Notes under the pieces: model-generated
What the model saw: only the letters and a program-made list of their open reading frames with translations
What the model was told of the DNA's origin: nothing
Database searches by the model: none
NCBI GenBank assembly: GCA_903875045.1
Contig: CAIQUS010000175.1
Location: 10,409 to 74,408, forward strand
Direction: 5' to 3'
Source: an uncultured Bacteroidales bacterium
Lineage (GTDB): Bacteria; Bacteroidota; Bacteroidia; Bacteroidales; FEN-979
Length of the DNA: 64,000 bases
Made by a program: the position numbers and the translations under genes
Part shown: piece by piece, positions 6,904 to 55,171 of the stretch
Layout: each line of letters begins with the position of its first letter
Position numbering within the stretch: position 1 is the first letter of the stretch

Positions 6904-6912
6904 ACGGTTTTC

Positions 6913-7902: not shown

Positions 7903-7934
7903 CCCTCTCCCTGAAGAGAGGGTTGGGTGAGGTG
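7903..7934. repeat. GC-rich hairpin repeat, half-copy (family F1)
   Basis: ccctctc-cctgaa-gagaggg hairpin followed by ttgggtgaggtg. The same hairpin plus a GGGTTGAGTGAGGTG arm occurs at 25923-25954, and related sequence occurs at 32307-32381. Confidence 0.6.
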
Positions 7935-7989
7935 AATTGAGGAAAGGCAAAATTGCAGTATTTTGAGTATTTTAGCAAAAAAAAATCCG

Positions 7990-13795: not shown

Positions 13796-14010
13796 TTATT
13801 GATTTCCAGTTGTTCAAGCTCAAGCCCACATCTGGTTTTATGGTGCAAATGTACCAGTTTCTCAGGAAATATTTCTTTGACAATCCTATGAAAATATTTG
13901 AAAACCAAAATGTTTGATTAAGGTAATATTTCAAATAAAAAGTGACGTTTTTTTTTGGGCCATGTATACGTGAAAATGTTTACTTTTAACCTTGCTAACA
14001 ATGCATTCAA

Positions 14011-16101: not shown

Positions 16102-16113
16102 CAACGGATTCAA

Positions 16114-18582: not shown

Positions 18583-18589
18583 TAAAAAA

Positions 18590-20358: not shown

Positions 20359-20422
20359 CCGACTTTGGAGAGTTTTGACAAAGAATAAAACCTAAAATCC
20401 GGACCCAAAAACAGTTGAAATT

Positions 20423-20866
20423 ATGACAAAAGATGATTTAATTTTAAAAGCTGAGGCGCTAAGGCAGCCATCGGATCTATCGGCAAAAGAATTTAACGAA
20501 AAAGGTCAGTTTCTGGCTGCAGAAATGAACCGGCTGATGCTTACACGAACTGACCTTGATAACCTGATCGGTCAGGGCAATATCACAATGATGGAGGATA
20601 ACCACCGGAACCATGCCCGGTTCATGTCATCTGTATTTATCTGTTTCCAACCCGATGTTCTTGTTGAAACAGTACTTTGGGTATACAGGGCCTACCGTGC
20701 CCATGGATTTCACCTCACCTATTGGCCTGCTCAGCTCGATCAATGGGTTGAACTTTTGAAGGTACAGCTGTCACCTGAAACGTTTCAGGAAATTTACCCT
20801 TTCTATCATTGGATGATCATCCACCAGTCGGCATTTGTAAATGAAAGCGATAAAATGAGAGGTTAA
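20423..20866 (+). CDS. hypothetical all-alpha His/Trp-rich protein
   Basis: 147-aa ORF in the same transcriptional direction, with small gaps on both sides. I recognise no family. Notable segments are MEDNHRNHARFM, YRAYRAHGFHLTYWP and FYHWMIIHQ. Confidence 0.6.
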   Translation: MTKDDLILKAEALRQPSDLSAKEFNEKGQFLAAEMNRLMLTRTDLDNLIGQGNITMMEDNHRNHARFMSSVFICFQPDVLVETVLWVYRAYRAHGFHLTYWPAQLDQWVELLKVQLSPETFQEIYPFYHWMIIHQSAFVNESDKMRG

Positions 20867-20893
20867 GCAGAAAAGTGTGCTATAAAATGGATT

Positions 20894-23521
20894 ATGGAGA
20901 GTAAAAAGAAAAAGATACTGATTATTGATGATAACAAGGATAACCATGTTGTGCTGAAAGCATTGCTAAACGAGTCGTTCCCCGATATTTCGATCCTGTC
21001 CGCTTTATCTGGTGCAGTTGGCCTTGAACTGGCAGCTTCTGACGACCCTGATGTGATCCTGCTCGATATTATCATGCCTGGCATGGATGGTTTTGAAGTT
21101 TGTCAAAGATTGAAAAATGACAAAAACCTCGGCGATATCCCGGTCGTTTTTGTAACTTCACTGATGGGTGAAAAGGAAACCCGGATTCGTGCCCTGGAAG
21201 TTGGTGCCGAAGCCTTCCTGACCAAACCCGTCGATGAAATTGAACTTACTGCCCAGATCCGTGCCATGTTGAAGATCAAAGCGGCCAACCTTGAAAAACG
21301 TGATGAAAAAAGAAAGCTTGTTTCGGTGGTGGAGGAACAGCTCCTTGAGATAAAATCAACTCAAATTGCCACCCTGAACATGCTCGAAGATGTGACCAGG
21401 GAAAATGAGGCTCGTAAGAAAAGTGAGGAAGCCTTATCCAAAAGCGAAGAAAAATACAGGACCATTTTTGAAAATGTTCAGGATGTATTTTATCAAACCA
21501 ATCTCGAGGGTGCAATTATTGACATCAGCCCGTCTATTTTTTATTTCTCTCAATATACACGGGAGGAACTGATCGGTGCCCCTGTATTCACCTTGTATTT
21601 CAACCGCAGTGACAGGCAAAACCTTATCAATACTATTTTTAAAAATGGCGAGTTAAGAGATTATGAATTAAAGTTTAAGAAAAAAAACGGTGAGATAAAC
21701 TATGTTTCAATCAATGCCCGGTTGATTTACGATGCCAATGGAAAACCAACCCATATTGATGGGGCCATCAGGGATATCCATTTTCGTAAACTGGCAGGAA
21801 ATCGCATGGATATTTCTTCGCGAATCCTGAATTCACTGAATACTTCCTCGATCCTCTCTCATACCATCAAACTCACCATCGACCTTATTCAAAATGAAAC
21901 CGGGTGTGATGCTATTGGAATCCGGTTAAAAAATGGTACCGATTTTCCTTTTTATATCCAGAGTGGTTTCAGTGATGATTTTCTTCGTACCGAAAATACC
22001 CTTCTCGGAAAAACAGAAGCTGGTACAGTATGCCTCGATAACAACGGCAACCCTTGTCTCGAATGTACCTGCGGCCTCGTTATTTCTGATCAAAAAAACA
22101 CCTCAAATCCTTTGTTTACCGAAGGTGGGAGTTTCTTTACAAACTACTCACCTGTATTATTGGATCTTACTGGCTCTGATGAACCCAGACATCACCCCCG
22201 CAACCTTTGTATTCATGAAGGCTTTCTATCATTTGCCCTTATTCCGATTCGTGCGAAAGGGGAAATTGTCGGACTGATGCAGCTGAATGACCGGAAAAAA
22301 GATTGCTTTACCACCGACATGATCCAGTTCCTTGAGAGCATTGGCGAAATTATCGGTGTTGCAGTGATGCGACGACACGCCGAAGAAGCGCTTGAAAGAA
22401 GCCACAAACTGCTTTTTAATCTTTCTGAACAGGTACCGGGCGTAATTTATCAATACAGGCTTTACCCCGATGGACACTCCTGCTTCCCCTATTCGAGTTC
22501 GGGTATGAACGAAATTTATGAAGTGACCCCCGAGGAGGTACGTGAGGATGCGACAGCTGTATTTGGAATGATACATCCCGATGACCACTCTCGTGTTTCT
22601 GAATTAATTTATGAATCAGCCCGTACACTGAAACATTTCGATTGCGAGTACCGTGTCATTCTGCCACGGCAGGGATTGCGCTGGCGGTATAGCGATGCAC
22701 TGCCCCAACGGATGGAGGATAACAGCACACTCTGGCATGGAATTATTTATGACATCACTGCCAGAAAAGAGGTGGAAAAAGAGTTGCTGGAGTTAAACAA
22801 CGATTTGGATAAACGTGTAAACCAGCGCACTGCTGAACTTGAAGCTGCAAATAAAGACCTGGAAGCTTTTTCATACTCTGTTTCCCATGATCTCAAAGCG
22901 CCTTTGAGGCACATCAATGGATTTATCGGGCTCTTTCTTGAGAATAAAACAACAGAATTCACGGAAGAAGAATTGGGATACCTGAAAAAAATTACGGATG
23001 CAGCAGGCGAAATGGCGCACCTGATCGACGCGTTACTTTCATTTTCAAGGCTGAACCTGGCCGAATTGCACAAGGCCAGGATCAATACACCAGAAATGGT
23101 CAGACAGGTTATCAATTTTTTTGAACCGGAAATGCAAAACAGAAAAATCACATTCAATTTGGGAACACTTCCTGAAATAAAAGGGGATGAAGAACTAATG
23201 CATCTGGTTTGGACCAACCTGATTGCAAATGCCATTAAATATACCAGTAAAAAACCTGAAGCAGTTATCGATATTGGCAGTATGTCAACCGATAAGGAAA
23301 CTACCTTTTACATCAGGGATAACGGGGCTGGATTTAATATGAAGTATGCCTCCAAATTATTCGGGGTCTTTCAGAGGCTTCATAAATCAAGGGATTTCGA
23401 TGGCGTTGGAATTGGATTGGCCAATGTGAGCAGGATTGTCAGGCGGCATGGGGGACAGTGTCGTGCAGAAGGGGAACCGGATAAGGGGGCAACTTTTTAC
23501 TTTAGCATTCCCTCATCATAA
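20894..23521 (+). CDS. receiver-PAS-GAF-PAS histidine kinase (class-A transmitter)
   Basis: N-terminal REC (IIDDNKDN...LLDIIMPGMDG...FLTKP). PAS (KYRTIFENVQDVFYQT). GAF with the Cys cluster CLDNNGNPCLECTCG. A second PAS. H-box FSYSVSHDLKAPLRHINGF. Confidence 0.9.
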   Translation: MESKKKKILIIDDNKDNHVVLKALLNESFPDISILSALSGAVGLELAASDDPDVILLDIIMPGMDGFEVCQRLKNDKNLGDIPVVFVTSLMGEKETRIRALEVGAEAFLTKPVDEIELTAQIRAMLKIKAANLEKRDEKRKLVSVVEEQLLEIKSTQIATLNMLEDVTRENEARKKSEEALSKSEEKYRTIFENVQDVFYQTNLEGAIIDISPSIFYFSQYTREELIGAPVFTLYFNRSDRQNLINTIFKNGELRDYELKFKKKNGEINYVSINARLIYDANGKPTHIDGAIRDIHFRKLAGNRMDISSRILNSLNTSSILSHTIKLTIDLIQNETGCDAIGIRLKNGTDFPFYIQSGFSDDFLRTENTLLGKTEAGTVCLDNNGNPCLECTCGLVISDQKNTSNPLFTEGGSFFTNYSPVLLDLTGSDEPRHHPRNLCIHEGFLSFALIPIRAKGEIVGLMQLNDRKKDCFTTDMIQFLESIGEIIGVAVMRRHAEEALERSHKLLFNLSEQVPGVIYQYRLYPDGHSCFPYSSSGMNEIYEVTPEEVREDATAVFGMIHPDDHSRVSELIYESARTLKHFDCEYRVILPRQGLRWRYSDALPQRMEDNSTLWHGIIYDITARKEVEKELLELNNDLDKRVNQRTAELEAANKDLEAFSYSVSHDLKAPLRHINGFIGLFLENKTTEFTEEELGYLKKITDAAGEMAHLIDALLSFSRLNLAELHKARINTPEMVRQVINFFEPEMQNRKITFNLGTLPEIKGDEELMHLVWTNLIANAIKYTSKKPEAVIDIGSMSTDKETTFYIRDNGAGFNMKYASKLFGVFQRLHKSRDFDGVGIGLANVSRIVRRHGGQCRAEGEPDKGATFYFSIPSS

Positions 23522-23582
23522 ATGGGAAGCATTTGACAGGCAAATAAAACTTATAAATAATTCACTACTATTAAATATTCAA

Positions 23583-25874
23583 ATGGAAAACAGGATAAGC
23601 ATTCTTCACCTCGAAGATCAGGAGGCAGACTCGATTCTGATAAAATCGTTAATCAGCAAATGGTTCAATTCTTTTGACTATTATTTTGTTGATGATGAAG
23701 ACAGTTTCATGAAAGCGCTTGAGGAGAAAAAGATTGATGTTATATTATCTGATTTTGAACTCCCGGATTATTCGGGATCAGATGCACTTCTTCTTGTAAA
23801 AAAACAGTACCCGCATATTCCGTTTATATTCGTTACAGGCAAAATGGGAGAAGACTCTGCGATTGAATCACTTCTGAATGGTGCCACGGATTATGTGATG
23901 AAATCTAAACCGGAACGCCTTGTACCAGCCATTAAACGTGTACTCTACGAAGCGGAATTGCTGAAAGACCGTATTGCTTCTGACAAAGCATTGCGCGACA
24001 GTGAAGAAAAATATCGCAACCTGGTTGAAAATATCAGCGATGTCATTTTTGAAGTCGACAGTCAATGGAAAATTCAATATATTAGTCCGGTAATAGAGAA
24101 AATTATTGGCTTTACACCAAAAGAGTTAACCGGCAACTCTTTTATCAATTTCGTATACGATCGTGATACGCCAACGCTCACTGATCTATTTTCTGAACTT
24201 CACCATAAGGTTGAAGCAGCGCACGAACACAGGTGCATGACCAAAACCGGGGATATTTGCTGGGTGCGTACCTCCATCAAAGGAATTTTTGAAGGTGACA
24301 CATTTATTGGCGGCAGCGGTACATTAATTGACATTACCAAACGGAAGCAGGATGAGGAGGCTCTTTTTAAGGAACAATACCTCATGGAAATTCTGATGAA
24401 CATCATCCCCGACCATCTCTATTTTAAAGACATTGACAGCAAATTTATCAGGATCAGTAAATCCAATAATTCCTCCTTTCATCTGAATGACGCATCAGAA
24501 GCCATTGGTAAAACCGACTATGATTTTTTCACGGAAGAACATGCGCGGACTGCATACGAGGATGAACAGGAAATCATCAGAACCGGGAAACCAATCATCA
24601 AGGAGGAAAGGGAAACTTGGGTCAATGGTCCCGACACGTGGGTTTTTACAACAAAACTGCCCCTGCGCGACCGCGAAGGGAACATTGTGGGCACTTTTGG
24701 TATTTCCAGGGATATAACAGAACGTAAACGGTTTGAAGAGGAACTGCTTAAAGCAAAAGAGAGAGCTGAAGCCAGCGACCGGCTTAAAACCGCATTTATG
24801 CGCAACATCTCCCACGAAATCCGTACACCCCTGAATGGGATTCTGGGATTTGGACAATTGGTTTCAGAACCCAATATTTCGCACTCCGACAAAGAAGAGT
24901 TCCTCATGATGCTGAATGAGAGTTGCGACAGGCTTATCAATACGGTGACCAACATCATGGATACCTCACTCATCGTATCCGGTAACCAGGATGTACAAAA
25001 GAAGAATGTTTCGCTGGTTGGTATGCTCGATGAACTCTATAACAAATTCAATCACCGCTGTGTACAGAAAAAAATAGTCCTGTCGGTACAAAAGCAACCG
25101 GTTCCGGATGATTTCCTTATAAAATCAGACCCGGAACTTTTAAACAAAGTGATGAACCACCTCATCGACAATGCCATTAAATACACCAAGGCTGGTTTCA
25201 TTGAATTCGGCAGCCGCATTGCGGAAAAAGATGTAGTTCTTTTTGTAAAGGATTCAGGAATAGGGATAAGTGTCAGCGAACAACAACGTATTTTCGAGCA
25301 CTTCAGCCAGGGAGATGTTTCGAATACCCGCGATCATGAAGGCAGCGGGCTTGGTCTTTCTATTGCAAAAGGACTGGTGGAACTGCTTGGTGGACGTATT
25401 TGGGTCGAATCGGTGAAGGGCGAAGGATCATCGTTTTTCGTCACAATCCCCATGGAAGATACCGAAACGGAGAACCTTGTTACTCCGCTGAAAAGCATCG
25501 AAAAATCTGACAAACCACTTATCCTGATTGCAGATGACGAAGAAACAAACTGTATGTTGCTGGAACGGATTCTCAGAAAGGAGGGAATTGATGTTGTTGT
25601 TGTAACCGATGGTCAGCAAGCAGTGGAAGCCTGCAGGCAAAACGAGGCGATATCCATGGTGCTTATGGATCTTAAAATGCCCGTCATGGACGGTTTTGAA
25701 GCAACCAAAATCATTAAAGGTTTTAACCCTGATTTGCCTGTAATTGCACTTTCGGCATTTGCACTCAGCGGGGATGAAAAACGCGCACTGGCAGCCGGTT
25801 GCAACGATTATATGACGAAACCATTGCGTAAGGATTTGCTGTTGCGTAAACTATTGCAATATGGGGTACATTGA
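23583..25874 (+). CDS. hybrid histidine kinase: REC - PAS - PAS - HisKA/HATPase - REC
   Basis: Start at MENRISILHLEDQEAD (23583); the track ORF's N-terminal extension overlaps the previous gene. H-box [15 protein letters not shown]-terminal REC (LIADDEETN...LMDLKMPVMDG...MTKP). Confidence 0.9.
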   Translation: MENRISILHLEDQEADSILIKSLISKWFNSFDYYFVDDEDSFMKALEEKKIDVILSDFELPDYSGSDALLLVKKQYPHIPFIFVTGKMGEDSAIESLLNGATDYVMKSKPERLVPAIKRVLYEAELLKDRIASDKALRDSEEKYRNLVENISDVIFEVDSQWKIQYISPVIEKIIGFTPKELTGNSFINFVYDRDTPTLTDLFSELHHKVEAAHEHRCMTKTGDICWVRTSIKGIFEGDTFIGGSGTLIDITKRKQDEEALFKEQYLMEILMNIIPDHLYFKDIDSKFIRISKSNNSSFHLNDASEAIGKTDYDFFTEEHARTAYEDEQEIIRTGKPIIKEERETWVNGPDTWVFTTKLPLRDREGNIVGTFGISRDITERKRFEEELLKAKERAEASDRLKTAFMRNISHEIRTPLNGILGFGQLVSEPNISHSDKEEFLMMLNESCDRLINTVTNIMDTSLIVSGNQDVQKKNVSLVGMLDELYNKFNHRCVQKKIVLSVQKQPVPDDFLIKSDPELLNKVMNHLIDNAIKYTKAGFIEFGSRIAEKDVVLFVKDSGIGISVSEQQRIFEHFSQGDVSNTRDHEGSGLGLSIAKGLVELLGGRIWVESVKGEGSSFFVTIPMEDTETENLVTPLKSIEKSDKPLILIADDEETNCMLLERILRKEGIDVVVVTDGQQAVEACRQNEAISMVLMDLKMPVMDGFEATKIIKGFNPDLPVIALSAFALSGDEKRALAAGCNDYMTKPLRKDLLLRKLLQYGVH

Positions 25875-25878
25875 AAAA

Positions 25879-25954
25879 CACCTCAACCCCCAACCCCTTC
25901 TCCTCAAGGAGAAGGGAAAATTCCCTCTCCTTGAAGAGAGGGTTGAGTGAGGTG
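25879..25954. repeat. GC-rich nested-hairpin element (family F1), complete copy
   Basis: Outer arms cacctcaaccc ... gggttgagtgaggtg enclose two hairpins: cccttctcc-tcaa-ggagaaggg (25895-25916) and ccctctc-cttgaa-gagaggg (25923-25942). Confidence 0.75.
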
Positions 25955-25982
25955 AATGGAAATTAGAATTTAACATATATTT

Positions 25983-26450
25983 ATGGAAAACCAACCGGCA
26001 GAAATTTTCTGTTTCACCATCGAAAATCAACAGTTTGCGATTCCTTTGACCTGTGTCGACCAGGTTCTTATGGCCGTTGCTGTATCTCCCGTGCCGAATT
26101 CTTCCGAACTTTTACATGGGCTCATCGATTACCATGGAACCCTGGTAGCTGTTATTAACCTTAGGTTCAGACTAAAATTGCCTTTAAAGCCCATCCGCAT
26201 CAGCAACAGATTTATCATTGCCAATACCTCCAAACGGAAAATTGCCCTCGTGGCCGATGAAGTATATGGTGTTATTGTACCTGAGATTAAGGACCTGATT
26301 TCGGCTGATGACCTGGACACTGATTTGGAAGCCACCGGAATTCTCCGTCGTGATGACGGAATCATCCTCATCTATGATATTGAAGGCTTTCTTTCCAATC
26401 AGGATGAAATTTTAATATATGATACAATTGATAATACAATAAATGAATAA
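25983..26450 (+). CDS. cheW: CheW-like coupling protein
   Basis: 155-aa single CheW domain (FAIPLTCVDQVL...LHGLIDYHGTLVAVINLR...IALVADEV). Confidence 0.85.
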   Translation: MENQPAEIFCFTIENQQFAIPLTCVDQVLMAVAVSPVPNSSELLHGLIDYHGTLVAVINLRFRLKLPLKPIRISNRFIIANTSKRKIALVADEVYGVIVPEIKDLISADDLDTDLEATGILRRDDGIILIYDIEGFLSNQDEILIYDTIDNTINE

Positions 26451-26453
26451 GTT

Positions 26454-27932
26454 ATGATCCCGGAGCATCATCTGCAGGAATTAAGGACAATGGTTGCAAT
26501 GCAGCTGGGCTGGGATTTCCCAGCCAACCGCAGCAATGACCTTGAGCGTGGAATTCTTGCTACAGCAAAAGAACTTGGGATCACCGAAACACCAAAGGCC
26601 ATTCACAGCTGGTTGGCTGGTATGTCATGGAATAAAAAGGAACTTGATATTCTCTCCTCCCACCTCACGGTTGGCGAAACCTATTTTTTTCGTGAAAAAG
26701 CTGGTTTGGACGTTTTCAAACAAAGGATCATCCCTGAAATCATCAGAGAGCGCATAGGAAGTGACCAGTACTTCCGCCTCTGGTGTGCAGGATGCTGTAC
26801 AGGCGAAGAACCGTACACCCTGGCCATAATCCTCCATGAATTGATCCCGGATATCCGGAACTGGAAAATTTCAATCCTTGCGACCGACATCAACCGTACA
26901 TTCCTGAAAAAAGCCCAAACCGGAATTTACAGCCAATGGTCATTTCGCGAAACACCCCAGGCAGCAAAAAACAGGTATTTTTCTACAGTTGGCAAAGATT
27001 GGGAAATTATCCCGGAAATCAAAAAGATGGTGAGTTTCTCCTATCTCAACCTCGCTGAAGATCAGTATCCGTCAACGCTGACGAATACTCATAACCTGGA
27101 TGTGATTTTCTGCCGGAATGTATTGATGTATTTCATCCCGCAACAGATCAGGACGACTGCCCAACGCTTCTATCAATCTCTCTCTGACAACGGATGGCTC
27201 ATCACCAGTGCTGTTGAAATGCATGACGACTATTTTTCTGATTTTTCCGGCGTGAGGTGCGAACAAGGCACTTTTTACAGAAAGGTGTCAAAAACTACCG
27301 GAATCCCTAATGCCGCAGATTTGGATCCCCGGATCAGATTCATTCCGCAACGGAGTAAGCCCGTGACCAACAGAAAAGGCAAAGTGGCTCCTTCACCCGG
27401 ATATAAACCTATTGCAGTGAAGTCACTGGAAAAAACCGGAGATCAATTACTTCCCGACTTAAAAACAGTTCAGGATCATTTTGATAAGGGAAGGTATCAG
27501 CTTTGTATTGAACAATCGATCCATTTACTCGCGGTAAAACCGTTGGCCACCAAAGCGTTAACCTTGTTGGTTCAATCTTTTGCGAACATGGGAAACCTCA
27601 CAGAAGCACGAATGTGGGGCGAAAAACTGCTTTTACAGAATGACATAACGGCTGATGCCTATTATCTGGTGGCTACCATATTGATGGAGGAAAATGAACC
27701 TCTGAAGGCCGAATCCACCTTGAAACGGGCGCTGTACCTTGATCCTCAACATCTTTTATCACACTTTCTGATGGGAAACATTGTTCGTCAACTTGGTAAA
27801 AATGTTGTTGCTGCCAAACATTTCAGGAACGTAAAAGACCTCCTGGCACCATTTCAGGATAACGAAGTGGTACCCGGGTCTGAAGGGTTAACCGCCGGAA
27901 GAATGAAATCAATTATAGAAACGATATTGTGA
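26454..27932 (+). CDS. cheR: chemotaxis protein methyltransferase CheR with C-terminal TPR extension
   Basis: ETYFFRE motif. SAM-binding FRLWCAGCCTGEEPYTLAI and ILATDIN. The C-terminal ~130 aa are TPR-like (AYYLVATILMEENEPLKAESTLKRALYLDP), as in WspC/FrzF-type CheR. Confidence 0.9.
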   Translation: MIPEHHLQELRTMVAMQLGWDFPANRSNDLERGILATAKELGITETPKAIHSWLAGMSWNKKELDILSSHLTVGETYFFREKAGLDVFKQRIIPEIIRERIGSDQYFRLWCAGCCTGEEPYTLAIILHELIPDIRNWKISILATDINRTFLKKAQTGIYSQWSFRETPQAAKNRYFSTVGKDWEIIPEIKKMVSFSYLNLAEDQYPSTLTNTHNLDVIFCRNVLMYFIPQQIRTTAQRFYQSLSDNGWLITSAVEMHDDYFSDFSGVRCEQGTFYRKVSKTTGIPNAADLDPRIRFIPQRSKPVTNRKGKVAPSPGYKPIAVKSLEKTGDQLLPDLKTVQDHFDKGRYQLCIEQSIHLLAVKPLATKALTLLVQSFANMGNLTEARMWGEKLLLQNDITADAYYLVATILMEENEPLKAESTLKRALYLDPQHLLSHFLMGNIVRQLGKNVVAAKHFRNVKDLLAPFQDNEVVPGSEGLTAGRMKSIIETIL

Positions 27933-27964
27933 TGAATGTCGAAATTAATACGTAAACTTGACAG

Positions 27965-28477
27965 ATGAAAGATGAACAGTTGATTCTTCAGGAGCGTGCA
28001 AAAAAGATTGCAGGATGGAAAACTGAATTGACATCAAAAGGCGAATCGCTTGTGGTGGTTGAATTTCAGCTTATTCCTGAAAGATATTGCATTGCCGGTT
28101 CCTTTGTTACAGAGGTTTTACCTCTCAAAGCAATCACGCCGATTCCCGGTGTTCCTGCCTTTGTTCTTGGTGTGATGAATGTACGGGGAAAAATCATCTC
28201 CATCATCAACCTTAAAACCTTCTTCAACCTGAAAGAGACAGGTATTACTCAACTGAATAAGATTATCATCGTCAAACAAAACCAAATGGAATTTGCAATA
28301 GTGACCGATGCAATAACAGGGACACGCGAAATTTTACTGAGCAGCCTGAGCGCTCCCCCGGTCACACTCAGTGGCATTGGTGCTGATTATATAAAAGGTG
28401 TCACACCCGATGGGCTTATTCTGCTCGACATTGCGACGGTTTTATCAAGTAAATCAATCATTGTAAATCAAAAATAA
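27965..28477 (+). CDS. cheW: CheW-like coupling protein (second copy)
   Basis: 170-aa CheW domain (YCIAGSFVTEVLPLKAITPIPGVPAFVLGVMNVRGKIISIINL). Confidence 0.85.
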   Translation: MKDEQLILQERAKKIAGWKTELTSKGESLVVVEFQLIPERYCIAGSFVTEVLPLKAITPIPGVPAFVLGVMNVRGKIISIINLKTFFNLKETGITQLNKIIIVKQNQMEFAIVTDAITGTREILLSSLSAPPVTLSGIGADYIKGVTPDGLILLDIATVLSSKSIIVNQK

Positions 28478-28549
28478 ATAAATACTTCCCCCGGAAGTGG
28501 GAGTGAAAAGGTCAGGTTTATTAATCAATTAATCAACAGGAGAAAAATT

Positions 28550-30043
28550 ATGAAATCAAAATCTATTCTCAGTACCCGTTCAAAACTTTTTTTGGGTTTC
28601 GGACTCATATTATTGGGTGTAATTGCCCTGGTAATCGTAGCCTATATTAATATGGTGAAACTGAACAAAATTGAAGATGAAATCATACAATCGTTTGAGG
28701 TTACCGAGATATTGATACAAATCAGGTCGGATGAGAACAGGATGAGAACCCTGATGCTGGAGATGATTCTCAATAAGGATGAGATAAAGAATAAAAAACT
28801 GGAAAAATCGATTCTCGAAAAGGTCGACTCAGTTTCAAAATTTTTATCCCAAATCAAAGAGAAAATTAAATTTTTCCCGGAAAATGTTGAAAAATTTGAT
28901 ACCCTTGAGAAACAAATGATATACTATTGTGAAATCCGCATGCAACTCATTGACTTAATCAAAGCTGATAAATTAGACGACGCAAAAGCCTTTATTGACG
29001 AAAAGGTAGATCCACAATGGGATGTGGCTAGGAATTACACATACACATTGCAAAAATCGCAGCAAAAGCACAGGGACATGAATGATGCAGAATTGAAAGA
29101 TGCATCAAGAATTGAAACTATTACCCTGATTACGATGGGAATTGGTTTGGTAGCACTGTCACTGATCATTTTAGCCTGGATGTTCAGAATGCTTAGAAAG
29201 ATTTTCGCCGAGATCAACAACAGCGTGAATATCCTTGGAACATCTGCCACAGAAATCCTTACTACAGTTACGGAAGTATCCACCGGCGCCACTGAAACGG
29301 CAACCTCTGTTGCTGAAACGGCCACCACCGTGGAGGAAATCCGCCAAACAGCCATGCTGGCCACCCAGAAAGCGCAATCGGTGCTACTTAGCTCACAACG
29401 AGCTTCAGAAGCAGCTGAAAATGGAAAGGAATCTGTTCTTCAAACCATTGAAGGCATGAAACGTATTGACCAGCAAATGAACCTGATCGCAGAAACCATT
29501 GTGAAACTATCAGAACAAAACCGATCCATTGGCGAAATTACATCAACAGTAAACGACATTGCTGATCAGTCTAACCTGCTGGCAGTCAATGCCGCCATTG
29601 AGGCAGCCAAAGCCGGTGAACAGGGACGCGGCTTTGCCGTTGTCGCCCAGGAAATCAGAAGCCTGTCGGAACAGTCAAAACAGGCTACTACTCAGGTGAA
29701 GGAGATTTTGAACGATGTTCAAAAAGCTGTAAATCAAGCCGTAATGGCTACTGAACAAGGATCAAAAGCAGTCGAAAATGGCAGCAATCTTGCCACACAG
29801 AGTGGTGAGATGATCGAAACCCTTGCTGATAGCGTAAATGAAGCAGCCCAATCTGTTATTCAGATTTCAACCTCCATCCAGCAACAGATGACAGGTATGG
29901 ACCAGATTGTACCTGCTTTGGGAAATATTAAACAAGCCAGCGAGCAAAATGTAGTTGGTATCAGGCAAACACAAACAGCAGCCCACAACCTGAATGATCT
30001 TGGGCAGAATCTGAAAAAAATTGTTGAAAAGTTCACTATCTGA
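28550..30043 (+). CDS. methyl-accepting chemotaxis protein (two TM segments, helical periplasmic domain)
   Basis: TM1 LFLGFGLILLGVIALVIVAYI and TM2 ITLITMGIGLVALSLIILAWMF. The conserved hairpin tip reads ADQSNLLAVNAAIEAAKAGEQGRGFAVVAQEIRSLSEQS. I see no obvious HAMP between TM2 and the signalling domain. Confidence 0.9.
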   Translation: MKSKSILSTRSKLFLGFGLILLGVIALVIVAYINMVKLNKIEDEIIQSFEVTEILIQIRSDENRMRTLMLEMILNKDEIKNKKLEKSILEKVDSVSKFLSQIKEKIKFFPENVEKFDTLEKQMIYYCEIRMQLIDLIKADKLDDAKAFIDEKVDPQWDVARNYTYTLQKSQQKHRDMNDAELKDASRIETITLITMGIGLVALSLIILAWMFRMLRKIFAEINNSVNILGTSATEILTTVTEVSTGATETATSVAETATTVEEIRQTAMLATQKAQSVLLSSQRASEAAENGKESVLQTIEGMKRIDQQMNLIAETIVKLSEQNRSIGEITSTVNDIADQSNLLAVNAAIEAAKAGEQGRGFAVVAQEIRSLSEQSKQATTQVKEILNDVQKAVNQAVMATEQGSKAVENGSNLATQSGEMIETLADSVNEAAQSVIQISTSIQQQMTGMDQIVPALGNIKQASEQNVVGIRQTQTAAHNLNDLGQNLKKIVEKFTI

Positions 30044-30050
30044 ACCTGCC

Positions 30051-32276
30051 ATGGATAAAAAGCAAGAAGCGTTTCTACTCGAGTTGATTTCTGACTTCAA
30101 AATCGAAGCAGCTGAGCATCATAAGGCTATTGTAAATGGTTTGCTGAAACTTGAAAAGAATCCCCCTGTTCCTGATTCAAAGTCATTGATCGAAACTGTT
30201 TTCCGTGAAATTCACAGCCTTAAAGGAGCTGCAAGGGCTGTAAACCTCATGGACATAGAACGACTTTGTCAATCCATTGAAAGTGTTTTTCACCTTGCCA
30301 AACAAGGAACACTTATGTTATCTGCTCCGCTGTTCGATATTTTGTATAAGGCTGTTGACATCCTCGGAGTGATGCTTTTGGAAGTTGAAGTCAAGGATAA
30401 AAGGATCGGGGCAAATACTTTATCCCAGTTGATGAAACGAATAGAACTTCAAATTAGTCAAAGCACACACGATAAGATAGATGCTCCGGCACCATTACAA
30501 GATGAGCAAATTAAGAAGGAAGAAGTCGTCGTAAAACCTGCCATCCCACCAGTTGAGATGCCTCAGGCTGAAAAGATTGAAGAAGAGCAGCCGGAACCGG
30601 TATCTGCTTTGGATTCATTGCCATTACAGCCTGCCGGTGTTGAAAAGCCTGCATCAAGTGACACTGTAAGAATTGCAACATCAAAACTTGGCGTGCTTTT
30701 ACGTGAAGCTGAAGAGTTTATTTCGGTCAAAGCCACACTGGGATTCTATATCAAGGAGTTGAAAAAAAAGCAGTTTAAAGAACTTAACCTGCTTGTGAAC
30801 GAGATGGAGCAGTTCCACCGGTCCATGTCACGCATGGTGGATGACCTTTTATTGGACATTAAAACGACGTTGCTTTACCCCTTTTCATCGCTCCTTGAAA
30901 TCGTTCCAAAAATTGTAAGGGATCTCGGAAAATCATATAACAAGGAGATCAAATTAACGATTCACGGAGGGGAAATTGAAATTGACAGGCGAATCCTTGA
31001 AGAGATCAAGGATCCGCTGATCCACCTGATCCGAAACTGCATCGACCATGGCATCGAACCTGTTGAAATAAGGAAACAGGCCGGGAAAATCTCAACCGGG
31101 AGCCTTGAAATTTCGGTCATACAAATAACGGGACGGGATGTGGAATTACATATTCACGATGATGGCGCCGGAATCGACAAAGCACGGGTCATCAAATCGG
31201 CCCTTAAAATGGGCATTGTTACCAACGATGCAATTAGCCGCATGACTGACAAAGAGATATATAATTTGATTTTCAGGTCGGGAGTTTCAACAAGTCCTTT
31301 CATTACCGATATTTCAGGCAGGGGACTGGGAATGGCTATTGTTGCTGAAAAGGTATCCAACTTAGGCGGAAACATTGCCATGGATTCCATTCCCGGACAA
31401 GGGACCACTTTTGTGATCAGCCTGCCCGTTACACTATCCACTTTCAGGGGTATTTTAATCCGGATCAACGAACAATTGTTCATCATACCCACTACTTCCG
31501 TTGAAAGGGCCATTCGGGTATTCAAAAAGGATATTAAATCTGTTGAGTCAAAACAAATCATTACACAAAATAACGAAAGCTTTGCATTGGTAAGGGTCGG
31601 CGATGTACTGGGTCTCCCTCACAGGAAATCAAAAAATGACGTTGGACTGCCAATGCCGGTATTAATTCTTACCCTGGCCCGGAAAAAAATCGCCTTTATG
31701 GTTGACGAAGTTTTGGGAGAGCAGGAAGGCATGGTAAAACATCTCGGGCCTCAATTGGTCCATGTCCGCAATATTGCGGGTGCCACCGTTCTTGGCAATG
31801 GCCGGGTAATTCCAATTCTCAATGTTGAAGAGATGATGGAATCGGCCACACATGTCATGGAAACCGCTCCGGATACTGAAACATCAGGCAGTACAGAAAA
31901 TTCGGAAGGAGGACCAAAACATATTCTTGTAGCCGAAGACTCGATCACTTTGCGTTCATTGCTTAGAAATATCATTGAATCATCAGGTTATAGCGTAAAA
32001 ACAGCTGTGGACGGAATGGAGGCTCTGCAGTTTTTAAAAAATGAGACGTTCGACCTGGTTGTTTCAGATGTTGAAATGCCAAGACTGAATGGTTTTGATT
32101 TAACAGCCAAAATAAGGGGTGACAAACGACTTTCCGATATCCCGGTCATACTGGTCACGGCACTTGATTCGGCCGATGACAGACAGAAAGGAATGGAATC
32201 GGGCGCCAATGCCTATATTATCAAAGGAAGTTTTGAGCAAAGCAATCTGACTGAAATGATTAAAAGGTTGATATGA
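30051..32276 (+). CDS. cheA: CheA-CheY hybrid kinase (HPt - linker - dimerisation - HATPase - CheW-like - REC)
   Basis: HPt HSLKGAARAV. A Pro/Glu-rich linker. HATPase (HLIRNCIDHGIE, DDGAGID, GRGLGMAIV). P5 CheW-like domain. C-terminal REC (LVAEDSITL...VSDVEMPRLNG...IIKG). Start at MDKKQEAF, 7 nt after the mcp stop. Confidence 0.9.
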   Translation: MDKKQEAFLLELISDFKIEAAEHHKAIVNGLLKLEKNPPVPDSKSLIETVFREIHSLKGAARAVNLMDIERLCQSIESVFHLAKQGTLMLSAPLFDILYKAVDILGVMLLEVEVKDKRIGANTLSQLMKRIELQISQSTHDKIDAPAPLQDEQIKKEEVVVKPAIPPVEMPQAEKIEEEQPEPVSALDSLPLQPAGVEKPASSDTVRIATSKLGVLLREAEEFISVKATLGFYIKELKKKQFKELNLLVNEMEQFHRSMSRMVDDLLLDIKTTLLYPFSSLLEIVPKIVRDLGKSYNKEIKLTIHGGEIEIDRRILEEIKDPLIHLIRNCIDHGIEPVEIRKQAGKISTGSLEISVIQITGRDVELHIHDDGAGIDKARVIKSALKMGIVTNDAISRMTDKEIYNLIFRSGVSTSPFITDISGRGLGMAIVAEKVSNLGGNIAMDSIPGQGTTFVISLPVTLSTFRGILIRINEQLFIIPTTSVERAIRVFKKDIKSVESKQIITQNNESFALVRVGDVLGLPHRKSKNDVGLPMPVLILTLARKKIAFMVDEVLGEQEGMVKHLGPQLVHVRNIAGATVLGNGRVIPILNVEEMMESATHVMETAPDTETSGSTENSEGGPKHILVAEDSITLRSLLRNIIESSGYSVKTAVDGMEALQFLKNETFDLVVSDVEMPRLNGFDLTAKIRGDKRLSDIPVILVTALDSADDRQKGMESGANAYIIKGSFEQSNLTEMIKRLI

Positions 32277-32306
32277 AAGACACTCCCCTGCGCTTTGAGG
32301 AGAAAG

Positions 32307-32444
32307 CACCTCACCCAACCCTCTCCTCAACGAGAGGGCTCCCCCCTTCTCCTTGAGGAGAAGGGGCCGGGGGTTGAGGTGCATTGTTCAGAAGGGGCCG
32401 GGGGTTGAGGTGCTTTTCTCAGCAGGGGCCGGGAGTTGAGGTGA
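32307..32444. repeat. composite GC-rich element (family F1) ending in 3 tandem 31-bp units
   Basis: cacctcacccaaccctctcctcaacgagaggg, then the hairpin ccccttctcc-ttga-ggagaagggg (32343-32366). Next come three copies of a(a)ggggccggg(g/a)gttgaggtg at 32361, 32392 and 32424 (31-bp period). The element fills most of the only large gap in the che cluster. Confidence 0.8.
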
Positions 32445-32480
32445 AGTGGTAAAACAGAAGTGTGACGAGGTAAGAATAAA

Positions 32481-33587
32481 ATGATGAACGAAAAAAAAAT
32501 ACGGGTTTTAATTGTGGAGGATACACTCGTTGGACAGGGTTTATTGAAAGGAATTTTAGCAGAAGATCCAAGGTTCGAGGTGATCGGACTTGCACAGAAT
32601 GGAAAACTGGCCGTTGATTTCGTTGCAAAATACCTTCCCGATGTGGTTAGTATGGATATTTATATGCCTGTAATGGATGGTGTTGAAGCTACACGGCTCA
32701 TCATGCGCATTGCACCCGTCCCGATAGTGATTGTAAGCAGTTTTTACAATACAAGTGAAATAAAAATGTCATTCAGCATTCTGGAAGCCGGCGCTTTAAC
32801 CATTCTTCCCAGGCCTTATGGCCCCGGTCATCCTGAATTTACCCGGACTGCCCGAAATTACAGGAATACGCTAAAAATGATGTCGGAAGTGAAGGTTTTC
32901 GCAAGGCGTACAAGTTCATTTCCTGATGCTTCAGACCATGACAGAAGCCGAAAAGTTTCTCAAACTAATCCTTCGGCTCCGCTAAACTCAGGTAGCCCAC
33001 GCAATGGTATGGTGAAACCGGGTGCCCTGGAAAAATACAAAATCATTGCCATTGGCGCATCTGCAGGAGGTCCTATTGCCACTCAATCGATTCTTCAAGG
33101 GCTTCAAAAAACCATTCCTGTTCCTATACTGATCGTTCAGCATATTGATTCAAATTTTGCTGAAGGGTATTGCGATTGGTTAAACGCATCTTCCAATCTA
33201 CCGGTTCACATTGCTTCCAATGGAATGCAAATGCTCCCCGGACATGTCTATCTGCCCCCAGGAGACCTCCACCTTGGATTGCTGCGTGAAGGGGTAATCG
33301 CTGTTTCAAACAATCCGCCAGAGAAAGGTTTACGCCCTGCTGTCAGCTTCCTTTTTAAATCTGTTAATATGGTGTATGGCAAACATTCCATCTGTATCCT
33401 TTTATCAGGAATGGGAGCCGATGGTGCCACAGAGTTGAAAACCTTACATGATGCAGGTGCACTTACCATTGCCCAGGATGCCCAAACTGCACTGGTACAT
33501 GGCATGCCTGGGGAAGCAATCCGGTTAGGGGGGGCATCCCGGATTCTTTCGCCCAATGAAATAGTTAGTGAAATTAGTAAAATTTAA
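32481..33587 (+). CDS. cheB: protein-glutamate methylesterase CheB (REC + methylesterase)
   Basis: REC (RVLIVEDT...SMDIYMPVMDG). Catalytic blocks IAIGASAGGP, LIVQHID and LSGMGADG. Confidence 0.9.
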   Translation: MMNEKKIRVLIVEDTLVGQGLLKGILAEDPRFEVIGLAQNGKLAVDFVAKYLPDVVSMDIYMPVMDGVEATRLIMRIAPVPIVIVSSFYNTSEIKMSFSILEAGALTILPRPYGPGHPEFTRTARNYRNTLKMMSEVKVFARRTSSFPDASDHDRSRKVSQTNPSAPLNSGSPRNGMVKPGALEKYKIIAIGASAGGPIATQSILQGLQKTIPVPILIVQHIDSNFAEGYCDWLNASSNLPVHIASNGMQMLPGHVYLPPGDLHLGLLREGVIAVSNNPPEKGLRPAVSFLFKSVNMVYGKHSICILLSGMGADGATELKTLHDAGALTIAQDAQTALVHGMPGEAIRLGGASRILSPNEIVSEISKI

Positions 33588-33598
33588 AAATAAAAAAA

Positions 33599-34858
33599 AT
33601 GAACATGCAAACATCATTTCAGATTTCATTGGGTAAAGGCTATATTCTGGCCGTTGAAGATTCCATGGTCCAGGCTAAAAAACTGAAGAATTTTTTAGAC
33701 ACCAACAACCTGAACAGTGTGATTTTTTCAAATGCAATCGATGCATTCACTGCAGCAATTGAGAATCCGCCCATACTTGTGATCAGTGATATTGTTATGC
33801 CTGAAATGGATGGATACGAATTCTGTTCAAAACTAAAATCGCATCCGGTATTAAGAGAAATACCTGTCATCCTGCTCACCTCCCTGCGTGATTCACTGGA
33901 TATCATCAAAGGATTGCAGGCCGGTGCTGATAATTTTATTACAAAGCCTTATGAGGAGCAATACTTGCTGTCAAGAATTCATTACCTTCTTGCTAACCGC
34001 GACATGAGGAGTAGCGGTTCAGCAGAAATGGTAATGGAAATCATGTTCAGGGGGGGGAAATATAAAATCAACTCCGATAAAAAACAGATATTGGACTTGC
34101 TCTTATCTGTTTATGAAGCCGCTGTTGAAAGAAATGATCAATTAATTTCAACCCAGGCCGAACTCCAGGCATCAAATGAAAACCTGACGGCTGCCAACCA
34201 GGAGCTGGATGCTTTTTCTGCCACCGTATCGCATGACTTGCGTTCTCCCTTGAATATTGTAGCCGGTTATACCCAGGTTATTCAGGAGAGTTATGCAGAT
34301 GTCCTCGATGCTGAAGCAAAGGATTTTCTGGACAGGATCCTTACCTCTGCTTTTTCAATGTCGAAACTCATTGACGATCTGCTTCAGTTTTCGCGATCGG
34401 GAAGAACGGAAATTCGCACCGAATTCGTCAACCTTAGCGAAATGGCAAGCGCAATTGTTGAAGAAATTGTTCCCCGGGATAAAGGCAATAAAGCTGTATT
34501 CAATATCCAAAGCGGGCTATTGTCAAAGGCTGACCCAAACCTGATTCATGTGGTACTCGTTAATTTGTTGGGAAATGCCTTGAAATATTCCGGTAAAGTT
34601 GAGAACCCTGTGATTACCTTCGACAAGACTGGTTCAGGCAGAGAGACTGTTTTCTATATCAAAGACAACGGGGCCGGCTTTAACATGGCCAAAGCGGATA
34701 AGCTTTTCAATCCTTTTCAGCGTCTCCATAGCAATCAGGAATTTGTTGGTACCGGCGTAGGCCTTGCTACAGTTCGGCGAATTATTGAACGACATGGAGG
34801 CAGGATATGGGCAGAATCGGAGCCTGGAAAAGGAGCTACTTTCTTTTTTACATTATAA
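33599..34858 (+). CDS. receiver-histidine kinase (REC - coiled coil - HisKA/HATPase)
   Basis: REC (LAVEDSMVQ...[11 protein letters not shown]...ITKP). H-box [31 protein letters not shown] and GTGVGLATV. It sits in the position occupied by WspR in Wsp clusters. Confidence 0.9.
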
Positions 34859-34865
34859 CCGAAGG

Positions 34866-37100
34866 ATGAAGAAGCATCTGATCGCCATATTGCTCTTTGC
34901 TGCAGTATTTGCCGGTGTCCTTTTCACCTGGCAAACCATTAGACGCGCTGACCGGGAACTGCGCGATGATTTGCTATTAAAAACCCGGATGGTCGCCCAT
35001 TCAGTAGATTTCGAACTTCTGAAGGCGCTGACAGGTACATCGTCTGACCTTGAAAAACCAGAATATCTAAAGATTAAGCAACAGCTTACCTTTATCAGGA
35101 ATGCCAATCCGCATTGCCGTTTCATTTATCTGATAGGCTGCAGGCCGGGCGATACCGTATTTTTCTTCGTCGACAGCGAGCCAGCAGGATCAAAGGATGA
35201 ATCACCCGCCGGGCAAATCTATGAGGATGTTCCCGACGACTATCGCCGTGTGTTTAAAACCGGTGTTGCTGTCACTGAAGGTCCTGCCACCGACCGCTGG
35301 GGCACCTGGCTCACAGGGCTCATTCCGATGGTTGATCCGGCATCGGGTAAAATTATCGCGGTGCTCTGTATGGATATTAATGCGAACACCTGGAAGTGGG
35401 ATGTTGCCGCAAGAGCGGCCCTTCCTGTTGGTTTAATGTTGTTGCTCCTGATTGTGATTGTAGCAGCTGCAAGGGATATCATTAGTCGTAAAAAGGCGGC
35501 GAAAGAACTTCTCATCGCAAAGGAGCAGGCAGATGCTGCCAGCAATGCCAAATCAGAATTTCTTGCCAACATGAGCCACGAAATTCGTACACCCCTCAAC
35601 GGTGTGATCGGGTTCACCGATTTACTGTTAAAAACCCCACTCAACGAAGTACAGCAGAAATATGTTGAAAATGTAAATATTTCAGGTCATTCATTGCTTG
35701 GCGTGATCAACGATATTCTTGACTTTTCAAAAATTGAAGCAGGAAAACTGGATATTGAAGTCATAAGAATGGATATCATTGAACTGGCCGAGCAGGCAAC
35801 CGACATTATCAAATATCAGGCAGGGAAAAAAGGGCTTGAACTTCTGCTCGACATTCAGCCTGATATGCCTCGCTTTGCTGTTGTTGACCCAATCCGGCTG
35901 AAACAGATACTGGTAAATCTTCTGGGAAATGCAGTGAAATTTACCGAATCAGGTGAAGTGCTGTTAAAGGTACACTTTACCCCGAAAGATACTGTATCAG
36001 GATTTTTCAGTTTTGCAATACGGGATACCGGAATCGGCATCAATGAGGAACAGAAAAAAAAGTTGTTTAAAGCCTTTTCCCAGGCCGATACTTCAACCAC
36101 CCGAAAATTCGGTGGCACCGGTCTTGGGCTTACAATTTCAAATATGCTTGCCGAAAAGATGGGAAGTAAAATTGAAGTGGAAAGTGAGATCGGGAAAGGC
36201 TCAAAATTCTTTTTTACAATTGAAACTATTTGTGGGTATGGTGAGAAGCTTGATTCACAAAGCCTTTCGCACATAAACAGGGTAATGGTCATCGATGATA
36301 ACGACCAAAACCGTTTGATCCTTGAGCGTGTCTTTGAAAGTTGGGGCATTGGTTTTACTGGTTGCAGCAACGGGCTGGATGCTCTGAAAATCATCGAACC
36401 GACTAACCCTTATGATGTAATTATTGTTGATTATCACATGCCATTTCTCAATGGTTTAACAACGATAAAACGAATTCGGGAGGATCTGAAACTCACTCCG
36501 GAAATGCAACCGGTAATCCTTTTGCATAGTGTGTCGGAAGATGAAGGGATTCATGATGAATGCAAAAGGCTTGGTGTAAGGTTTAACCTGCATAAACCCG
36601 TGAAATCCCAGGAATTGATCCAGTACCTTAAAAATCTTCACAAACATCCAAATTCTGAGTTGCCAGATGCTGAAAGGACAAAAAGGGAAGAAATTGTGCT
36701 ATCCGTCACCGGGGATCAGCCGGTCATTCTGATTGCTGAAGATGTAAAAATGAATATGATGCTGATCAAAGCTGTGATTGGTAAACTGCTGCCCGATGCT
36801 AAAATTATTGAGGCTGTCAATGGCAAAGAGGCGGTGGAAACAATCAGGAAGATCACACCAACATTGGTATTAATGGACGTTCAGATGCCTGTGATGGATG
36901 GTATTCATGCAACCATGGAGATAAGAAAAAATGAACAGCGTGGCCATGCGCATATTCCAATCATCGCACTTACCGCAGGAGCGCTGAAAACGGAAGAAGA
37001 GATTTGCCGAAATGCCGGAATGGATGATTTTCTGACTAAACCCATTGAACCGAAAGCACTGCAGACGATTTTAAAAAAATATTTAGCCTCTTCAGGGTAA
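34866..37100 (+). CDS. hybrid sensor kinase: 2-TM periplasmic sensor - HisKA/HATPase - REC - REC
   Basis: Start at [20 protein letters not shown] (34866). A ~190-aa periplasmic domain lies between TM1 and TM2 ([17 protein letters not shown]). H-box [11 protein letters not shown]. Two complete receivers (VIDDNDQN...VDYHMP and IAEDVKMN...[11 protein letters not shown]). Confidence 0.9.
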
Positions 37101-48305: not shown

Positions 48306-48734
48306 ATGAAGAAATTAAACTGTGTATTGCTTGTGGACGATAACGAGTCTGACAATTTTATTCACAAAAGGGTTCTTGAAAAATCCGAGATCACCAAAAG
48401 CATTGCTGTTGCCCTGAACGGTCAGGAAGCGCTTGATTTTCTTAAAACAAAAATTAACAAGCCACAATCGGAAGATGCATATTGTCAGCCTGATTTGATT
48501 TTTCTGGATATCAACATGCCGGTCATGGATGGGTGGGAGTTTCTTGATGAATATCATAAACTTGAAAATGATCAGAAAGGGAAAGTGGTTTTTATCATGC
48601 TCACAACCTCTTTGAACCCGGTCGACAGGAGCAGAGCCGAACAAATGATTACCGGCGGATGTTTTCAGTTCAAACCCCTTACCCAGGAAATGATTAATAC
48701 CATCATGAAGATTCACTTTCCGGAATACCTTTAG
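48306..48734 (+). CDS. single-domain (receiver-only) response regulator
   Basis: 142 aa: LLVDDNESDN...LIFLDINMPVMDGWEF...IMLTTS...FKPL. There is no output domain. It begins 6 nt after the preceding kinase, the same architecture as Rcp1-type partners of SHDLQEPLR-type kinases. Confidence 0.9.
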   Translation: MKKLNCVLLVDDNESDNFIHKRVLEKSEITKSIAVALNGQEALDFLKTKINKPQSEDAYCQPDLIFLDINMPVMDGWEFLDEYHKLENDQKGKVVFIMLTTSLNPVDRSRAEQMITGGCFQFKPLTQEMINTIMKIHFPEYL

Positions 48735-55121: not shown

Positions 55122-55171
55122 CGGGCAGGTGGACAGGTGGGCAGGTTGGCAAGTGGGCAAGTGACAGGTGG
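55122..55171. repeat. 8-bp tandem array (family F3)
   Basis: cgggcag GTGGACAG GTGGGCAG GTTGGCAA GTGGGCAA GTGACAG GTGG begins on the base after the TAG stop at 55119-55121. Confidence 0.9.

Follow-up and report, generated by a model that had tools for sequence, protein, structure and literature searches.

Genes and proteins of the operon

We analyzed a 64,000-nucleotide stretch of DNA from an uncultured Bacteroidales bacterium (contig CAIQUS010000175.1, positions 10,409 to 74,408; this whole stretch is referred to as the window), centering on a chemosensory operon in which the gene directly after cheB encodes a receiver domain (REC) fused to a histidine kinase, hereafter the receiver-kinase. 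Genes were called from a listing of open reading frames (ORFs) and from Pfam scans of the window (ORFs of at least 150 aa), and this revealed the same eight genes, with the same boundaries and domains, that an earlier note had read from this DNA:

25983..26450, + strand, cheW, first coupling protein (Pfam CheW, E = 1.7e-23)
26454..27932, + strand, cheR methyltransferase with a C-terminal TPR (Pfam CheR, E = 2.8e-47)
27965..28477, + strand, cheW, second coupling protein (Pfam CheW, E = 6.5e-29)
28550..30043, + strand, mcp, receptor with two transmembrane segments (2-TM), a periplasmic four-helix bundle, and no HAMP (Pfam 4HB_MCP_1 and MCPsignal)
30051..32276, + strand, cheA-REC hybrid kinase with Hpt, divergent P3, HATPase, CheW-like P5, and REC, no P2 (Pfam)
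32481..33587, + strand, cheB methylesterase with an N-terminal REC (Pfam CheB_methylest, E = 2.1e-54, and REC)
33599..34858, + strand, receiver-kinase in the output position, with REC, beta-hairpin, long helix, DHp, and CA (Pfam REC, HisKA, and HATPase_c)
34866..37100, + strand, 2-TM hybrid kinase with HisKA, HATPase, REC, and REC, no Hpt, outside the conserved unit (Pfam)

The conserved unit consists of seven genes, cheW, cheR-TPR, cheW, mcp, cheA-REC, cheB, and REC-HisKA-HATPase, and every operon protein keeps its catalytic or phospho-acceptor motifs. CheR has the S-adenosylmethionine-binding motif GCCTGEE; CheA has the phospho-acceptors H55 and D673 as well as the N, G1, and G2 boxes; CheB, which scored above the cut-off of an NCBIfam CheB subfamily model, has D58 and the catalytic Ser/His/Asp within its GASAGG, QHI, and GMGADG motifs; and the receiver-kinase has D64, H212, and the N, G1, and G2 boxes. 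The cheA ORF opens at a TTG (30021), and translation from the ATG at 30051 gives MDKKQEAF, the N terminus common to its homologues, while database homologues of the receiver-kinase begin at its third codon. Residues 379 to 458 of CheR matched TPR_8, TPR_2, ANAPC3, and TPR_16, each just under its own cut-off, and a TPR-class match not marked as weak or faint was obtained with TPR_19 in one CheR homologue and with ANAPC3 in another. A spacer of 7 bp separates the receiver-kinase gene from that of the 2-TM hybrid kinase, whose hydrophobic segments lie at residues 1 to 26 and 178 to 209.

The hydrophobic segments of the receptor were located at residues 9 to 41 and 188 to 219, and its signaling hairpin has the tip at E357 and a C-terminal arm of 140 residues, equal to 20 heptads. 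Residues 213 to 495 aligned with residues 266 to 548 of the Pseudomonas putida aromatic-acid receptor 6s18 (283 residues each) with small compensating indels only, and we take 6s18 to belong to the 40H class. Since the signaling domain exceeds that of the 36H receptor Tsr by 28 residues (4 heptads), with the surplus divided about evenly between the two arms, the receptor is of 40H length, a call that rests on length and alignment and not on a class-specific hidden Markov model (HMM). The signaling domain begins at the end of the second transmembrane segment and therefore leaves no room for a HAMP domain; the earlier note, too, had seen no obvious one. Among 24 relatives, 19 have a receptor of exactly 497 aa. 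The Pseudomonas syringae WspA orthologue has likewise been classed as 40H and assigned to an ACF (alternative cellular functions) system (PMC11253619).

Conservation of the unit and of its output position

A CheA alignment was scanned against one genome per species, the 80 best loci were retrieved, and the window proteins were compared by BLAST with all ORFs of these loci. The best matches, 70 to 71% identical, came from one Bacteroidota metagenome-assembled genome (MAG) and two uncultured Draconibacterium. By these matches the window falls within Bacteroidales, near Draconibacterium/Prolixibacteraceae. Eight of the loci stop before or at cheB, leaving 72 that are informative, and in 70 of these the gene right after cheB starts with a homologous receiver; the position is empty in the other two (L070 and L083). 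This gene was a simple REC-HisKA-HATPase kinase of 411 to 503 aa in 50 of the 70 loci, 41 of them labeled Bacteroidota and 9 from Ignavibacteriota, Acidobacteriota, Chloroflexota, Binatia, and Spirochaetota, whereas the remainder comprised larger REC-GAF/PAS-kinase hybrids (14 loci, by Pfam), REC-SpoIIE (PP2C) phosphatases (2 loci), one REC-PAS-GAF-GGDEF-EAL protein (L048), and genes cut by a contig end (3 loci). Loci with the conserved order span Bacteroidota, Ignavibacteriota, Acidobacteriota, Chloroflexota, Spirochaetota, and others.

A search of a large protein collection with the receiver-kinase yielded more than 100 homologues of 417 to 432 aa, 57 to 100% identical, and nearly all of those carrying a source name were from Bacteroidota or Bacteroidales MAGs. 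When the contigs of six of them (100, 75, 66, 61, 59, and 59% identity) were inspected, the kinase gene lay directly after cheB in all six. On five contigs the whole seven-gene unit recurred in unchanged order, the surroundings being otherwise unrelated, and on the sixth (P0001, 100% identical and from the same organism) the view was limited to a 3-kb flank with cheA, cheB, and the kinase gene. The linkage between cheB and a receiver-kinase, whose conservation the earlier note had set as a check of its reading, is kept in related genomes by either route of search, which favors that reading, and a chance juxtaposition was ruled out by the recurrence of the order in dozens of independent genomes.

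Across 24 complete loci, the spacing between cheB and the kinase gene ranged from −35 to +14 bp, and the receiver-kinase was the most conserved operon protein in 23 of them, with a median identity of 65% versus 43 to 56% for the other operon proteins, the first CheW being the least conserved component (43%). The mcp gene is the fourth gene in essentially all relatives.

We then compared the first 135 residues of the receiver-kinase by BLAST with the 279 receiver-containing ORFs of the loci. All but one of the 70 post-cheB proteins fell within the top 77 matches with at least 44% identity, regardless of the output domain, and the other places among these 77 were taken by the equivalent post-cheB genes of L001 to L005 and by three extra tandem outputs in L058 and L069. 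Receivers of CheA, CheB, and neighboring hybrid kinases reached at most 39%. These results indicated that the post-cheB receiver forms one orthologous group, whether fused to a histidine kinase, a GAF/PAS-kinase, GGDEF-EAL, or SpoIIE, and therefore that the orthologous receiver stayed with the che core while the effector was exchanged. As judged from sequence, this co-retention is the strongest argument that CheA would serve the post-cheB receiver.

No substitution was seen at D64, H212, N326, D356/G358/G360, or G384/G386/G388 among 60 receiver-kinase homologues (57 to 85% identity). With these homologues as input, AlphaFold2 predicted, in order, the receiver (residues 16 to 137), a beta-hairpin (146 to 157), a helix (159 to 231), DHp helix 2, and the ATP-binding domain, and the helix of residues 159 to 231 is modeled as running unbroken into DHp helix 1 and bearing H212. 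Over the kinase core, the fold is similar to that of HK853 and bacteriophytochrome kinases, and over the full length its best match was the Leptospira receiver-kinase LvrB (PDB 8vc9, Foldseek E = 4e-21), a receiver-controlled kinase that, like the protein studied here, has an N-terminal receiver followed by DHp and CA; identity was about 20%, the TM-score about 0.33, and the rmsd about 25 Å, because the domain arrangement differs. Unlike the operon kinase, LvrB lies outside any chemosensory cluster.

Two of the related loci deserve a comment. L069, from a Bacteroidales MAG, has a tandem of three output genes behind cheB (13648 to 21626), all with che-type receivers and encoding a REC-SpoIIE protein, a REC-HisKA-HATPase kinase, and a 1716-aa REC-GAF-PAS(x6)-kinase. 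L015, labeled as an Alphaproteobacteria MAG, is nearly the same as the Bacteroidales MAG L014 in ORF coordinates and in identities to the window, and its taxon label probably reflects a binning or labeling error.

Class, precedents, and competing readings

The operon was placed in a chemosensory class by its diagnostic features. CheA has a C-terminal receiver and no P2 domain (Pfam Hpt, HATPase_c, CheW, and Response_reg), and ACF is among the classes whose CheA bears a receiver (PMC10782961). Other features of the ACF class present here are a CheR-TPR, a receptor of 40H length, and a regulator made of a receiver and an output domain directly after cheB in place of CheY. No CheC, CheD, CheV, CheX, or CheZ was detected by Pfam in the window ORFs of at least 150 aa or in the 4 longest of 18 intergenic ORFs, and Pfam found no flagellar genes in the 64-kb window, where two proteins with a tail of the type IX secretion system (T9SS) are encoded; on all of these points except CheV, which it did not name, the earlier note had read the DNA correctly. 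In the flagellar classes F1 to F17 the cluster includes a single-domain CheY, usually along with auxiliary phosphatases, and the operon has neither. NCBIfam matched only generic CheA, CheB, and CheW equivalogs, most of them below cut-off, and no Wsp-specific models, and was uninformative for class.

The gene content is Wsp-like, as first proposed: CheA-REC, CheR-TPR, two CheW, one receptor of 40H length, and CheB. The Pseudomonas Wsp system (WspA-F and WspR) has the same component set, a receptor of 40H length, and a receiver-first gene after cheB, but its gene order differs, and its output is a REC-GGDEF diguanylate cyclase, whereas in the CheA clade of this operon a GGDEF-EAL output occurred in 1 of 70 loci. 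Wsp has been defined by wspA-F synteny, with mcp first, and found only in beta- and gammaproteobacteria (PMC8552884). The order here is cheW, cheR, cheW, mcp, cheA, cheB, which bears out the earlier remark that the mcp has moved, and the closest loci are from Bacteroidota, Bacteroidales, and Prolixibacteraceae MAGs. By gene order and taxon, the operon falls outside the Wsp system in the strict sense.

A precedent in architecture is the Burkholderia H-system, in which the hybrid kinase WspH replaces WspR in 206 strains, acts independently of cyclic di-GMP, and is tied genetically to the regulator RowR (Kessler et al., PMC8552884). The Burkholderia cenocepacia version (WspA-F with WspH/WspHRR) shares the ACF/Wsp core of a CheA-REC hybrid, CheR, CheB, and two CheW, and its terminal gene, as here, codes for a receiver joined to a histidine kinase and not to GGDEF; its cognate regulator, for which RowR is implicated genetically, is encoded elsewhere, as also appears to be the case here. 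The two differ in phylum, in the position of mcp (fourth here, first there), and in that the receptor studied here has no HAMP. By architecture, the receiver-kinase matches the WspH type.

The Che3 pathway of Rhodospirillum centenum, cited accurately in the earlier note, is a second precedent: CheA3 phosphorylates REC1 of CheS3 and thereby switches off the kinase that feeds CheY3 (He et al., PMC3868531). Che3 shares with the operon a CheA-REC hybrid, two CheW, CheR, CheB, one receptor, and a second kinase with an N-terminal receiver; in Che3, phosphorylation of that receiver by CheA3 controls the second kinase, and the pathway regulates development, not motility. However, CheS3 is a REC-REC-PAS-HWE kinase, whereas the operon kinase has a single receiver, no PAS, and a HisKA kinase joined by a helix, and Che3 encodes the acceptor CheY3 within the cluster, whereas the Bacteroidota operon has no acceptor and the only stand-alone receiver of the window lies 13 kb away. 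In its mode of action the operon would nonetheless resemble the H-system and Che3.

The genes for CheR-TPR proteins are mostly found in clusters with multidomain regulators, a group equated with the ACF class, and a HisKA-HATPase module is present in about 40% of these regulators (Muñoz-Martínez et al., PMC3447774). With such a share, and with the WspH swap already described (PMC8552884), the earlier presentation of the layout as unusual was overstated. Genomic surveys and experiments alike have already recorded kinase outputs in ACF pathways, and the operon reveals no new signaling principle; it is a Bacteroidota lineage of the known non-motility (ACF/Wsp-type) chemosensory layout. Bacteroidota are generally regarded as poor in chemosensory systems. 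We found no characterized example from this phylum in the literature, in agreement with the earlier note. New here are the presence of one seven-gene ACF-type unit in many Bacteroidales and Prolixibacteraceae MAGs from anoxic habitats, the receiver-kinase as the most constrained part of that unit, and the use of the output position as a swap site for kinase, cyclic di-GMP, and PP2C modules on one orthologous receiver. These findings are of use for annotation and for the choice of a model organism.

We consider it likely, with a probability of roughly three in four, that the operon encodes an ACF-class non-motility chemosensory pathway in which a classical histidine kinase carries the dedicated output receiver. 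In such a pathway, the single HAMP-less receptor of 40H length would sense a periplasmic or membrane cue and control CheA via the two CheW proteins. H55 in P1 of CheA would donate phosphoryl groups to three aspartates: D673 of its own C-terminal receiver, which may act as a sink or regulator; D58 of CheB, which together with CheR-TPR would provide methylation-based adaptation; and D64 in the receiver of the downstream kinase. The phosphorylated receiver would then signal along the helix of residues 159 to 231 into DHp and switch the autokinase/phosphatase state at H212, and the kinase would set the phosphorylation of a response regulator encoded outside the operon, altering gene expression or physiology rather than swimming. 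We infer every one of these phosphotransfer steps, together with the sign of regulation, the stimulus, and the final target. The precedents differ in sign, since CheS3 is inhibited by its receiver (PMC3868531) and WspH is needed for output (PMC8552884).

The following points weigh against this assignment. The operon is filed under ACF by diagnostic features, with class-specific HMMs forming no part of the basis; the TPR matches in CheR are individually below threshold; the receptor has one methylation-consensus site only; the model of the receiver-kinase is of moderate confidence only (pLDDT 75.8, pTM 0.45); all 80 related loci come from MAGs, so that no relative contributes a phenotype; and the conserved unit encodes no cognate response regulator, which leaves the final step of the mechanism empty. 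No acceptor was found in the Bacteroidota operon or in its Bacteroidota relatives among the loci. More distant relatives carry the relay onward: in L071 (Desulfarculaceae) the post-cheB protein is a REC-HisKA-HATPase-REC-REC-Hpt kinase followed by a REC-HD regulator, and in L085 (Spirochaetota) a stand-alone receiver comes after the receiver-kinase, as in the CheS3/CheY3 pair. It therefore seems probable that the operon kinase, too, signals forward to a regulator encoded elsewhere.

One alternative is that the che operon serves as one input of a larger local phosphorelay, in which the receiver-kinase or the Hpt domain of CheA exchanges phosphoryl groups with the flanking REC-REC hybrids and the rest of a 34-kb array. 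Pfam confirmed the 12 other kinases of the earlier note, namely, the 2-TM hybrid at 34866 and eleven further HisKA kinases on the same strand between 14011 and 48299. The array (14011 to 48299) holds 14 co-directional kinase genes with short gaps and no DNA-binding response regulator, and one of its members directly precedes the operon:

23436..25874, + strand, hybrid kinase with PAS, PAS, HisKA, HATPase, REC, and REC, upstream of the operon (Pfam)

Both flanking hybrids are without Hpt, P1 of CheA is the sole Hpt in the window, and L071 joins a che-type receiver to an HK-REC-REC-Hpt module, all of which would suit such a relay. The upstream kinase has full-length orthologues directly before cheW1 in L006 (78% identity), L011 (63%), and L035 (62%), and the 2-TM hybrid, with its 7-bp spacing, is kept in the nearest relative L006 (73%) and on the other contig of the same organism. 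However, these three loci were the only ones with the upstream orthologue, any kinase just upstream of cheW1 was seen in only 10 of the 57 loci with enough upstream DNA, and the 2-TM hybrid is absent elsewhere. The seven-gene unit sits in unrelated neighborhoods in most genomes, and no kinase follows the operon on four of the kinase-seeded contigs. In addition, the DHp and CA core of the receiver-kinase is 26 to 43% identical to those of its neighbors and departs from them just behind the phospho-acceptor histidine, and neither flanking hybrid has che-type receivers. These data argue against the earlier proposal of an input node for the 12 kinases; since the flanking kinases are kept in the nearest relatives only, a local phosphorelay would be a lineage-specific possibility and not a property of the system, and we regard it as unlikely.

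A more doubtful idea is that, in a non-flagellated uncultured Bacteroidales, the kinase acts unlike CheS3 and WspH and the operon is a self-contained module, the kinase either closing a loop onto the receivers of CheA or CheB, as might be imagined because no acceptor is encoded with it, or controlling a Bacteroidota-specific process (T9SS or gliding) via a conserved orphan regulator.

It is less probable still that the operon is a true taxis system in which the receiver-kinase replaces CheY and steers T9SS-linked gliding or another motility of non-flagellated Bacteroidales. In its favor, the window encodes T9SS cargo, as does the DNA next to the operon in some relatives, and the adaptation system is complete, with both CheR and CheB. 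Nevertheless, neither the window nor the DNA linked to the operon in the loci examined contained genes for motility or gliding, the diagnostic traits match the ACF class, phyla that lack T9SS gliding also have this operon, and a kinase relay is slow compared with direct control of a motor by CheY.

Least probable of all, the receiver-kinase could be a phosphate sink or phosphatase that drains CheA without a forward signal, leaving the CheA receiver or the methylation state as the output; sink receivers are known in chemosensory systems, that of CheA3 having been described as one (PMC3868531), and the conserved unit encodes no acceptor regulator, but the kinase catalytic motifs, which a pure sink would not need, are invariant in the 60 homologues, the receiver-kinase is the most conserved operon protein, relatives carry downstream acceptors, and both CheS3 (PMC3868531) and WspH (PMC8552884) signal forward.

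Kinase array, repeats, and other features of the window

The kinases of the window fall into three paralogue groups, with cores 61 to 72% identical inside a group. In the five kinases starting at 14011, 16114, 20894, 40765, and 44037, the DHp and CA core is 61 to 72% identical, and the sensors differ (PocR-PAS, REC-PAS-GAF, CHASE4, and SBP_bac_3-PAS), as if sensors had been exchanged on one type of kinase core; these kinases may converge on shared regulators. The pairs 37164/42488 and 38694/46533 are 61 to 62% identical. For the receiver-kinase, a regulator shared with the neighboring kinases was ruled out by its core identity to them and by its different specificity region.

A stand-alone receiver lies at the end of the array, and two T9SS-tail proteins and a repeat complete the features:

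48306..48734, + strand, stand-alone receiver of 142 aa (Pfam Response_reg, E = 2.7e-12)
7963-11439, T9SS-tail protein
55168-57615, T9SS-tail protein
32277..32480, no strand, repetitive extragenic palindromic (REP)-like repeat inserted between cheA and cheB (sequence reading and motif counts)

Being below the 150-aa cut-off, the 48306-48734 receiver was missing from the first ORF list, and the earlier statement that there is no stand-alone CheY accordingly stands for the operon but not for the window. The gene starts 6 bp after the last kinase gene, and its orthologue in L011 (72% identity, 18256 to 18687), which lies downstream of the che operon there, also follows a kinase gene. As a candidate for the missing CheY it is unlikely, since its gene comes directly after that of another kinase in the window and in L011 alike and is absent from the other loci, and it is probably not part of the che unit.

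Within the array, the region from 14011 to 20358 contains two PocR-PAS kinases and then a gene for a B12-binding-domain protein (18473-19240), whose last 4 bp are shared with the gene for a short kinase without a recognized sensor (19237-20358); this region may be a cobalamin- or light-linked sensing unit. A 147-aa ORF without a Pfam match (20423-20866) occupies a 535-bp gap inside the array.

An Rfam scan of the window gave no match. A promoter and terminator scan gave counts at or below the shuffled expectation and was not used, the sigma-70 consensus being unsuited to Bacteroidota.

The cheA-cheB gap of 204 bp is filled by three tandem units of about 31 bp, and in 21 of 24 relatives this gap is at most 22 bp. 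The units belong to a REP-like palindromic intergenic repeat family found at 25875-25960, at 32290-32445, at about 6141, and at about 7903. The hairpin unit CCYTCTCCTYRANGAGARGG matched 9 times when both strands were counted (5 sites), with 0 expected, the hairpins are flanked by CACCTCAACCCC / GGGGTTGAGGTG, and the hairpin and flank motifs are far above chance in the window.

The stretch from 6087 to 7962, just upstream of the gene for a 1158-aa T9SS cargo protein, is 1.9 kb of low G+C content (0.37 versus about 0.44) with no ORF longer than 119 aa. Toward the other end of the window, a 211-aa ORF without a Pfam match lies between the genes for two adjacent Schlafen/AlbA_2-domain proteins (60654-61301 and 62029-63366, − strand), which are located near pyrBI genes.

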